The notes beneath the pieces are model-generated. The model was not told the DNA's origin. It was given only the letters and a program-made list of their open reading frames with translations, and ran no database searches. A program made the translations under genes and the position numbers. Shown here piece by piece: positions 39,739 to 41,028 of a stretch of DNA of 64,000 nt. The stretch lies in NCBI RefSeq assembly GCF_016026235.1, contig NZ_CP065613.1, one strand, 5' to 3'. Origin of the DNA: Escherichia coli. Its GTDB lineage: Bacteria > Pseudomonadota > Gammaproteobacteria > Enterobacterales > Enterobacteriaceae. Positions within the stretch are counted from its first letter, which is position 1. Every line of letters starts with the position of its first letter.

Positions 39739-39853
39739 TAAACACGTAAAATCGGTAACGGCTGGAAATCATTCAATACTCGCACTATCGAAAGTTTACC
39801 AGCCAACCGCAGCACGTCCTGCATACGTCGTGTCTGCGGTTTTTCTTTTTCGC

Positions 39854-40123
39854 TTACATTGTGTCTGGTTCTTCCGGCCACTCAATATCAGGTGCAGTTG
39901 ATGTATCAACACGGTTCAGCAACACCCGATACTTCTTCCAGGCTTCCAGCAACGAGTTTTCTTCCTCCGTTGCGATCTCCAGATCTACAGCATCCTGAAG
40001 TGGCGCAATATGCTCACTGAATTCCTGGATGTAGAACTGTGTGGTGACGGTCTTCCAGCCATTCGGCTCCTGCTGTATCGAAGCATACCAGGCTATTTCA
40101 ATATCGCTATGCTGCGGCAGCAT
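39854..40123 (-). pseudogene. tail fibre assembly protein, C-terminal fragment
   Basis: …[50 protein letters not shown] matches the lambda Tfa C-terminus; only ~89 codons, no tail-fibre gene upstream. Confidence 0.6.
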
Positions 40124-40179
40124 TTAACCCCTTGTAATTCATCGCCATAATTGATTTAATTCACAAATAAAACTATAAC

Positions 40180-40848
40180 ATGGTGAAATTAATGAAAAAA
40201 AACACAGATGATGGGGCTAAAATTTACACACCACTTACCCTAAAGCTTTATGACTGGTGGGTTTTGGGAGTATCAAATCGGCTTGCATGGGGATGTCCTA
40301 CAAAGGAACACCTTCTTCCACACTTTCTGGAACATTTAGGTAACAACCATCTGGATATTGGTGTTGGAACTGGGTTTTACCTTACTCACGTACCTGAGAG
40401 TAGTCTGATATCTTTAATGGATTTGAACGAAGCTAGCCTGAACGCGGCATCTACAAGGGCTGGGGAATCAAAAATTAAACATAAAATTAGCCATGATGTT
40501 TTTGAACCTTATCCTGCGGCGTTACATGGTCAATTTGATTCCATTTCCATGTTTTACCTTCTTCACTGCCTGCCTGGAAATATATCTACAAAAAGCTGTG
40601 TAATACGCAATGCGGCGCAGGCCTTAACTGATGATGGAACTCTATACGGAGCCACAATTCTTGGCGATGGAGTTGTGCACAATAGCTTCGGTCAAAAACT
40701 GATGCGCATTTACAATCAGAAAGGCATCTTTTCAAACACAAAAGATTCCGAAGAAGGCTTAACACATATACTCTCAGAGCATTTCGAGAATGTTAAAACC
40801 AAGGTTCAAGGTACTGTAGTAATGTTTTCCGCTTCAGGGAAAAAATAG
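40180..40848 (+). CDS. putative class I SAM-dependent methyltransferase (prophage cargo)
   Basis: 222-aa ORF with a Rossmann motif-I-like LDIGVGTGFY; AT-rich surroundings; start (40180 or 40192) uncertain. Confidence 0.55.
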   Translation: MVKLMKKNTDDGAKIYTPLTLKLYDWWVLGVSNRLAWGCPTKEHLLPHFLEHLGNNHLDIGVGTGFYLTHVPESSLISLMDLNEASLNAASTRAGESKIKHKISHDVFEPYPAALHGQFDSISMFYLLHCLPGNISTKSCVIRNAAQALTDDGTLYGATILGDGVVHNSFGQKLMRIYNQKGIFSNTKDSEEGLTHILSEHFENVKTKVQGTVVMFSASGKK

Positions 40849-41028
40849 CATCCAACCGCAGCACGTTCTTGCTTAAGACGTGCTACGGTTTCCTTTACGA
40901 TTTGGGGTTGCGACTTTACCTCTATTGATAATGCATTCCGGCAGAACGTTCAAATATGAACGTACGATATTTAACTAACCGAAAAACAAAATATAGCACA
41001 GGCGAGACATTTACCATCTAAGAAAATA

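Follow-up and report, generated by a model that had tools for sequence, protein, structure and literature searches.

A conserved terminator-type hairpin at cargo borders in the tail-fibre arm of a lambda-like Escherichia coli prophage

The T hairpins and their family

We analysed a 64,000-nucleotide stretch of Escherichia coli DNA (contig NZ_CP065613.1 of assembly GCF_016026235.1; hereafter the window), in which two exact copies of a 15-mer, CCAACCGCAGCACGT, lie on the + strand on either side of a 1-kb segment of prophage DNA. The gene order at this locus is btsS, a 5′ stump of mlrA, a dinI-like gene, the first hairpin described below (T1), a truncated tail fibre assembly gene on the − strand (tfa′), a methyltransferase gene, the second hairpin (T2), an ipaH gene, and the tail genes tfa, stf, lom and J on the − strand (Table 1). 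This part of the window is 99.9% identical to enteroinvasive E. coli (EIEC) CFSAN029787, and the locus is the accessory arm of a lambda-like prophage, running from the attachment site to where the late operon ends; the dinI-like and methyltransferase genes belong to + strand units that are oriented against that operon. We found that each of the two 15-mers forms the 5′ arm of a hairpin and that both hairpins are members of one family, which we call T, and we think it likely that these hairpins are conserved moron terminators acting as recombination linkers.

Allowing up to two mismatches, no third copy of CCAACCGCAGCACGT is present elsewhere in the window. The original prediction, made from the letters of the DNA, had correctly reported two exact copies but misplaced the first by 11 nt and the second by 1 nt. 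It had also described each copy as being followed by a hairpin-like sequence, and on folding the 15-mer turned out to be the 5′ arm of the hairpin itself. When the repeats were aligned together with their flanks, 50 of 67 positions were identical (39790–39855 against 40839–40902), and the local alignment score of the T1 and T2 regions was 30, compared with 8.7 ± 1.5 (maximum 16) in 2000 shuffles.

Folded on the + strand, T1 has a predicted energy of −19.0 kcal/mol (z −4.0) and is followed by a U tract, UUUCUUUUU. T2 folds at −18.4 kcal/mol (z −4.2), has a single internal C·A mismatch in its stem, and is followed by a weaker, moderately U-rich tail, UCCUUUACGAUUU (40891–40903). T1 starts 65 nt past the stop codon of the dinI-like gene (TAA, 39736–39738) and T2 starts 4 nt past that of the methyltransferase gene (TAG, 40846–40848). 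Each thus combines a stable, G+C-rich stem-loop, a U tract on the 3′ side and a co-oriented gene just upstream, as expected of an intrinsic terminator. The suggestion that the repeats are duplicated terminator or 3′-end sequences was borne out to this extent: the two are homologous copies of a single element, a terminator-type hairpin, and each stands at the 3′ end of a + strand gene. Given these structures, both hairpins would be expected to terminate transcription in vivo.

To define the family, we searched with ~55 nt around either window copy as the query. Members share a common design, consisting of a 5′ arm AACCGCAGCACG(T), a loop of ~10 nt and a 3′ arm (A)CGTG(N)CTGCGGTT, usually with a U tract directly after it. 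Homologues in phages and prophages lie on the strand opposite to the late genes. Phage lambda carries one copy between ea31 and ea47 (24162–24204) and a second between the convergent genes ea47 and tfa, 16 nt from the tfa stop; phage mEp460 has T after dinI, with 100% identity to window positions 39798–39852 (55 bases, spanning T1); and in HK97, T lies with a conserved leader block, L-A, directly after the annotated sib site. T follows the methyltransferase gene in phage 2G7b and in the K-12 prophage DLP12, which carry homologues of the window's methyltransferase, and is found at the right end of the Rac prophage. The O157 prophage at ssrA has the order dinI–T–tfa′, followed by effector genes including espM2 and espW. 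The lambda GenBank records annotate no feature at either lambda copy, a literature search with the hairpin motif in both DNA and RNA spelling returned no paper, and we found no name or description for the family. In lambda NC_001416 the copies extend over ~22570–22610 and ~24162–24265, the latter including the L-A leader and lacking a U tract, and at the right end of Rac in K-12 (locus L148, 2400–2545) a series of TTTT(T)GCCCC repeats occupies the place of L-A in front of the hairpin.

The 40-nt core of T is present in 4939 of 5426 complete E. coli genomes, with a median of two copies and a maximum of eight, and every context that we inspected in E. coli was prophage DNA. The motif is therefore a low-copy one; had it been common throughout the genome, the original prediction would have been refuted. 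With two copies in the window and this number per genome, we rejected a dispersed repeat of the REP, BIME or ERIC type, which would number tens to hundreds of intergenic copies across the chromosome. In a scan of species-representative genomes, genuine copies were found only in Escherichia; the remaining matches were either unrelated palindromes or short contigs of metagenome-assembled genomes (MAGs) resembling misbinned E. coli phage DNA. A block of L-A plus T of the Escherichia type also occurs on two short MAG contigs assigned to Bacillota and Lachnospiraceae, which are probably coliphage DNA placed in the wrong bins.

Across 24 variants of T, 93.8% of stem cells were paired. Compensatory double changes occurred at three stem pairs (A:U to G:C, C:G to U:A and C:G to A:U) and were near zero in slid-partner controls. 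These changes support an RNA hairpin under selection. T-rich tails follow ~15 of the 24 variants and are missing from those that abut a tfa stop. U tracts and G·U pairing on the + strand are both signs of a hairpin formed in RNA, that is, an intrinsic terminator.

Table 1. Features of the prophage arm, in window coordinates
Feature	Position	Strand	Basis or remark
mlrA (yehV) 5′ fragment, prophage-interrupted	39198–39263	+	Incomplete CDS annotated at the equivalent EIEC CFSAN029787 position
Promoter-like site upstream of dinI-like gene	39424–39453	+	TTGACA-18-AAAAAT, 10/12; consensus match only
dinI-like gene, 82 aa	39490–39738	+	Pfam PF06183 DinI, E 1.2e-19; EIEC annotation DinI-like family protein
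L-A, conserved leader block (GTAAAATC...CCAG) travelling with the hairpin	39746–39802	+	Homology with HK97 and lambda
T1: 15-mer copy 1 39803–39817, stem 39805–39841, U tract 39842–39850	39803–39850	+	Predicted intrinsic terminator of dinI-like unit
tfa′, truncated tail fibre assembly gene, C-terminal 89 aa	39854–40123	−	Pfam PF02413 Caudo_TAP positions 75–130 of 131; EIEC partial tfa
Interval with crossover joining dinI arm to tfa′/methyltransferase module	39899–40007	.	Informative sites
Promoter-like site upstream of methyltransferase	40124–40151	+	TTAACC-16-CATAAT, 9/12; consensus match only
Class I S-adenosylmethionine-dependent methyltransferase, ybcY type, 222 aa	40180–40848	+	Pfam Methyltransf_12/23/25/11
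T2: 15-mer copy 2 40852–40866, stem 40854–40890, weaker U-rich tail	40852–40903	+	Predicted methyltransferase terminator; on the − strand, predicted CssrB terminator
CssrB small RNA, 3′ terminal stem = T2 hairpin	40857–41036	−	Rfam RF02799
Crossover interval inside T2 (ACGTGCT)	40878–40884	.	Parental-type markers on either side
ipaH-family type III secretion system (T3SS) effector E3 ubiquitin ligase, cargo right of T2	41164–42807	+	Pfam NEL PF14496, E 6e-77, and LRR_TTSS; EIEC ipaHe

Joints and chimeric hairpins

In ~3800 E. coli genomes, agreement with the window runs through the methyltransferase gene and its hairpin and stops at 40888, where the stem ends. Past the stem, these genomes continue with a tfa 3′ end (CATAATCCC...), and the window with TTTCCTTTACGATTTGGGG..., the start of an island that comprises CssrB and ipaH. 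Among IMG/VR contigs, the ipaH-type tail occurs in two contexts, either behind the methyltransferase or behind a diverged L-A leader, and the latter context carries the hairpin CCAGCCGTGGCACGTTCTTGCATACGACGTGCTACGG, in which a T in the 5′ arm is the pairing partner of an A in the 3′ arm, a compensated C:G to U:A change. In T2, the 5′ arm and the loop CTTAAG (40872–40877) are of the methyltransferase type, and A40885 and the tail TTTCCTTTACG (from 40889) are of the ipaH-locus type. The C·A mismatch follows from this combination of a methyltransferase-type 5′ arm with an ipaH-type 3′ arm. Both parental types fold without interruption, at −23.0 and −21.7 kcal/mol, versus the −18.4 kcal/mol of T2. 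T2 is a hybrid, and its crossover lies within ACGTGCT, because the loop type marks the left side of this interval and A40885 and the tail type mark the right.

The left edge of the methyltransferase module lies elsewhere. With phage mEp460 and the O157 ssrA prophage, the shared part of the window begins at 39424, takes in dinI, L-A and T1, and ends within tfa′ at 39999–40003; with the methyltransferase modules of 2G7b, K-12 and others, it runs from 39876/39899 to 40888. At informative sites the window resembles the dinI arm (mEp460, O157) up to 39898 and the methyltransferase module (2G7b, K-12) from 40008 onward, so that the joint between the two lies in ~110 nt of tfa′ coding homology and not in T1. 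The original prediction that the repeats served as recombination points for cargo therefore holds for T2, a real joint where homology stops at 40888 and the arms are hybrid, but not for T1, across which the window continues to resemble the dinI arm. Exchange among lambda, Rac and Qin is documented for their stf/tfa region, and the left joint in tfa′ resembles the stf/tfa exchange shown experimentally (De Paepe et al. 2014, PMC3945230). The two parts also occur separately, the dinI arm without the methyltransferase in mEp460 and the O157 ssrA prophage, and the methyltransferase without dinI in 2G7b and DLP12.

The arrangement of T, tfa′, methyltransferase and T is repeated at ~25 other loci. 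In loci of the EC958 type, the same module lies between direct repeats of 148 nt (131/148 identical) that consist of the hairpin and a tfa 3′ end, and the 15-mer pair in the window is therefore the residue of a larger repeat. Compared with EC958, the left copy in the window has a tfa tail of a different type, and the tfa end of the right copy has been replaced by the ipaH island. The locus is a mosaic of three parts: a dinI arm of the mEp460/O157 type, from 39424 to ~39900; a tfa′/methyltransferase module of the DLP12/2G7b type, from ~40008 to 40884; and the CssrB–ipaH island from 40885, which would have been joined to the methyltransferase module through the crossover inside T2.

We compared 79 distinct contexts of T taken from IMG/VR contigs, phages and E. 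coli genomes, giving 3081 pairs. More than half of these (1698) share the hairpin only; 241 pairs share only the left flank in addition, 168 only the right flank, and 172 share both. Left flanks, such as the dinI-type L-A leader and the methyltransferase 3′ end, combine freely with right flanks, among which are tfa 3′ ends of two kinds and the ipaH/CssrB tail as well as several more. Some hairpins are themselves chimeric. One has loop halves from two different types (L111), two combine a methyltransferase left flank with other 3′ halves (L090, L056), three join a dinI-type leader to a methyltransferase-type hairpin (L057, L080, L081), and two carry a C·A arm mismatch identical to that of T2 (L092, L014b). 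T thus has the properties of a linker sequence, with unrelated DNA on its flanks across genomes and crossovers mapped within the shared sequence. The switch points vary from one chimera to another, which argues against a site-specific mechanism and for general recombination on shared sequence.

Several copies of T can also stand in an array. Within positions 1–5300 of one IMG/VR contig (L093), three copies follow, respectively, a 262-aa open reading frame (ORF) with cysteine-rich motifs, a C-terminal remnant of dinI, and a 274-aa ORF that directly precedes a Pin-type invertase. Between the first two copies there is a convergent pair of − strand ORFs, of 173 aa and 119 aa.

We propose that T would cap accessory transcription units that oppose the late operon and are located, in lambda-like prophages, on the arm bounded by the attachment site and the tail-fibre genes, with T1 ending the dinI-like unit and T2 ending the ybcY-type methyltransferase unit. 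Because the same ~40-nt hairpin stands behind many unrelated cargo genes, it could serve as a patch of homology for swapping the DNA on either side, and because the L-A leader travels along with it, the shared unit at T1 would amount to ~105 nt. By analogy with known phage recombination, exchange would have occurred through homologous or short-homology recombination (Red, RecET or RecA) rather than through illegitimate joining followed by selection.

A number of observations weigh against this proposal. The case for termination is a structural one, the T2 tail is only moderately U-rich, and a simple terminator scan flagged neither T1 nor T2; the scan missed them because its loop and bulge rules are too strict, and we therefore relied on folding. 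Several copies of T that abut a tfa stop, and likewise the lambda copy at 24.2 kb, entirely lack a U tract on this strand. At informative sites, T1 shows no signature of a joint in this window. For T2, the inferred parents are identical over only 7–12 nt around the crossover, less than the published minimal efficient pairing segment (MEPS) for Red-beta of 23–27 bp (De Paepe et al. 2014, PMC3945230), so that this joint may be microhomology-mediated or illegitimate. A paralogous ipaH locus, with 98.8% identity to the window from 41845 onward, falls to 88% over the CssrB region (40861–41045), which excludes it as the direct donor. Among the 20 IMG/VR loci that we examined, no methyltransferase-less donor in which a dinI-type leader is joined directly to the ipaH tail was found, only a diverged version of the leader (L-A′). 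The true parents of T2 may have been more alike than the sampled versions.

A rival account is that the T hairpins are ordinary terminators, inherited passively with their modules, with joints formed by random illegitimate recombination and selection keeping those that fall between transcription units, in line with the Hendrix/Juhala view of phage mosaicism; T itself would then promote no exchange. The position of the module's left joint in tfa′ instead of T1 fits this account, as does a T2 crossover with 7 nt of identity between the sampled parents, below the MEPS. However, at least six independent chimeric hairpins have switch points scattered within ~40 nt, and 1698 context pairs have T alone in common; random joining with selection for cuts between genes fails to explain why the same 40 nt should be retained at every joint. 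We consider passive inheritance rather unlikely.

CssrB, the L-A leader and alternative readings

The window matches the Rfam model of the small RNA (sRNA) CssrB, chromosome-encoded Shigella sRNA B, with 230.2 bits, against a gathering score of 76, over the full model (1–180), and the 3′ stem of that model is the T2 hairpin. CssrB was detected as a northern band of ~180 nt in S. flexneri 301, where its 3′ end was assigned by terminator prediction and where cssrB lies between SF2021 and SF2022 in the arrangement → ← → (Peng et al. 2011, PMC3071730). The order in the window, with the methyltransferase gene (→), cssrB (←) and ipaH (→), is the SF2021/SF2022 order. That account of CssrB notes neither that its terminator belongs to a hairpin family widespread in phages and is used in common with the convergent methyltransferase gene, nor that the hairpin is recombinant in this locus (PMC3071730). 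On the − strand, the T2 mismatch becomes a G·U pair, and the predicted fold is −24.0 kcal/mol compared with −16.0 kcal/mol for the hairpin of the paralogous ipaH locus; the crossover would thus have strengthened the hairpin that ends CssrB here.

T1 belongs to a longer conserved block. The block of L-A and T1 (39746–39850) is 95% identical to the sequence directly after sib in HK97 and 87.5% identical to lambda at 24.1–24.2 kb, with unrelated sequences upstream. Homology with these phages starts after the dinI stop (39745/39737) and ends with T1, and the left edge of L-A, GTAAAATC, is sharp in four unrelated upstream contexts. A tblastn search found no remnant of dinI upstream of the T copies in lambda and HK97. 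The unit of ~105 nt is carried by O157 and Shigella prophages, and Rac has T without L-A. In the HK97 segment analysed (L006), the unit (2448–2546) begins right after the annotated sib retroregulation site (2398–2447) and forms a second hairpin behind tI/sib. RNAalifold predicted a weakly covarying long-range stem (GGCUGG/CCAGCC), in which each pair has a single compensatory change, and Rfam contained no family matching 39740–39850 at E ≤ 1. We rejected an independent promoter for L-A, since the TAAAAT at its left edge has neither a conserved −35 element nor a TG motif. A preprint on the Pas sRNA does not mention dinI, tail fibre or ipaH contexts. L-A plus T may be either a longer linker or an uncharacterised RNA element.

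These observations raise the possibility that T functions primarily in non-coding RNA, with L-A plus T1 acting as an Hfq-type sRNA, independent or derived from a 3′ untranslated region, or as a retroregulatory element, and T2 serving mainly as the terminator of CssrB. The 87–95% identity of L-A plus T behind sib in HK97, on the ea31 side in lambda, and behind dinI and other genes, its sharp left edge and the long U tract of T1 are in keeping with such a function. So is the identity of T2 with the terminal stem of CssrB, a transcript seen on a northern blot (PMC3071730), and so is the more stable − strand fold of the hybrid. Set against this are the absence of an Rfam family at E ≤ 1, the lack of a conserved −35 element upstream of L-A, the single compensatory change per pair in the long-range stem, and the failure of the literature search to return the sequence in any paper; a block of 95–105 nt would be equally expected of a recombination linker. 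We regard an RNA function as the primary role of T as doubtful. A more specific version, in which L-A plus T is a conserved prophage RNA element, such as an Hfq-type sRNA derived from a 3′ untranslated region or a retroregulator, whose terminator doubles as a cassette joint in the attachment-proximal arm, seems to us a long shot as well. If it were true, the T2 crossover would have created a strong − strand hairpin (−24 versus −16 kcal/mol) that defines the 3′ end of CssrB at this locus.

The repeats could instead be the scar of an insertion, whether a target-site duplication or the termini of a mobile cassette with the tfa′/methyltransferase segment on board, perhaps recognised by a site-specific recombinase of the attC, att or Pin/hix kind. 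Direct repeats do bound the 1-kb segment on both sides, the same layout recurs at ~25 loci, and a Pin-type invertase gene adjoins T in some prophages. Yet each copy also occurs alone elsewhere, one after the dinI gene of mEp460 and the other after the methyltransferase gene of 2G7b, the switch points inside T vary rather than being fixed, and the left boundary of the module is in tfa′. The 148-nt repeat of EC958-type loci, which includes a tfa 3′ end, is the signature of a duplication or unequal crossover and not of a short target duplication. We also rejected an attC-like reading of the sequence ATCCAAC, a single half box (RYYYAAC) with no inverted partner. Taken together, these features make an insertion scar very improbable. 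In its structure, T has the characteristics of an intrinsic terminator and of a boundary or linker sequence; it lacks those of target duplications, site-specific recombination sites and REP-like repeats.

A chance match can be set aside almost with certainty: the window has three isolated exact 15-mer direct repeats, about the number expected at random, of which the other two look like noise, so that a bare exact 15-mer in 64 kb is not significant, but the similarity of this pair extends over 67 positions with a score far beyond that of all 2000 shuffles, both copies have the same structural role, and the hairpin family is conserved in dozens of phages.

Surrounding features and related systems

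The prophage splits mlrA (yehV) ~22 codons into the gene, leaving a fragment that we take to be the N-terminus of MlrA, and mlrA is the site that Stx1 phages use for integration in O157:H7. The promoter-like site upstream of the dinI-like gene coincides with an annotated promoter of phage mEp460; the number of promoter-like sites in the region does not exceed the shuffled expectation, and both candidates in Table 1 are consensus matches only. A match to the Rfam family IS009 (RF02111; 39897–40100, − strand, 129 bits) falls entirely inside the tfa′ remnant, and for this reason the IS009 “RNA gene” family may be merely a conserved fragment of a tfa pseudogene. The ipaH gene of the island is an intact ORF of 547 codons in the window and is annotated as frameshifted in the 99.9% identical EIEC CFSAN029787. 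The 98.8% identity of the paralogous ipaH locus covers the C-terminal NEL half of the gene and the downstream tfa and stf, and the leucine-rich repeat (LRR) half is different.

Outside the arm, a tandem duplication of ~608 bp lies between yehK and yehL (27741–28840) and contains two matches to the OrzO-P antitoxin RNA, at 28128–28201 and 28736–28811 (+ strand); this is a zorO/orzO–zorP/orzP type I toxin–antitoxin pair. The window also contains other exact direct repeats, of 35–49 nt (14144–14238 and 19395–19489, ~5.2 kb apart) and of 23 nt (18258 and 22577, ~4.3 kb apart), which suggest paralogous genes in its left part.

The intrinsic terminators of phage morons are a close known system (Juhala et al. 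2000; Hendrix and colleagues; PMC3594210). In the usual description, every moron brings a terminator of its own. Like morons, the dinI-like and methyltransferase units each comprise one gene and a predicted terminator of hairpin and U tract, and lie between phage genes; a promoter-like site, in both cases a consensus match only, stands upstream of each gene. The units would also be transcribed independently of the late operon, and they are present in some related phages and absent from others, as morons are. Unlike morons, the unrelated cargo here carries copies of one and the same hairpin, which is itself recombinant in form.

Conserved boundary or linker sequences between the modules of lambdoid phages are said to be part of the modular theory of Susskind and Botstein and of the work of Clark and colleagues on HK620 in 2001. 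T is similar in being a short conserved border sequence with unrelated DNA on either side and a site of crossover. It differs from a neutral linker in that it looks like a functional terminator, with compensatory changes in its stem, and in its confinement to the arm between the attachment site and the tail-fibre genes. For the lambdoid prophages of enterohaemorrhagic E. coli, Tobe and colleagues reportedly described, in 2006, exchangeable effector loci on the downstream side of the tail-fibre genes. The present locus is comparable in that T3SS effector cargo, here ipaH, is flanked by the tail-fibre genes on one side and by the attachment-proximal arm of dinI, T and tfa′ on the other; in O157 the cargo consists of espM2, a DUF1076-domain gene and espW. 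The concept of exchangeable effector loci concerns gene content and does not specify a boundary sequence. There is also a likeness to the attC sites of integrons, in that every cargo gene has an imperfect hairpin behind it and two or three gene–hairpin units can stand in an array (L093, L014, L105), but in the absence of an integron integrase and of paired R″/R′ boxes, and with variable crossovers, T is not of the attC family.

In relaxed homologous recombination between phages and defective prophages, short and diverged homologies are enough for Rad52-like recombinases of the Red type to generate mosaics (De Paepe et al. 2014, PMC3945230). The substrates in that work were hundreds of base pairs long, compared with ~40 nt for T, ~105 nt for T with L-A, and 7 nt for the crossover interval of T2. 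A second study, on lambdoid mosaicism, is silent on terminators and breakpoints (PMC9836094).

Our findings leave current understanding unchanged and offer a clear but ordinary illustration of how phage genomes are patched together. They provide an example, at nucleotide resolution, of virulence cargo, an ipaH effector gene with its neighbouring sRNA, being spliced into a lambda-like prophage, with the joint inside a terminator-type hairpin common to many E. coli and Shigella prophages and a mismatch left in the hairpin as a scar. The assigned terminator of CssrB is, on this evidence, a recycled phage element that it has in common with the convergent methyltransferase gene. The example bears on the debate over phage mosaicism, in which exchange at short shared sequences is set against purely random joining, and T could be used as a simple sequence marker for the boundaries of cargo in the prophage arm between the attachment site and the tail-fibre genes.

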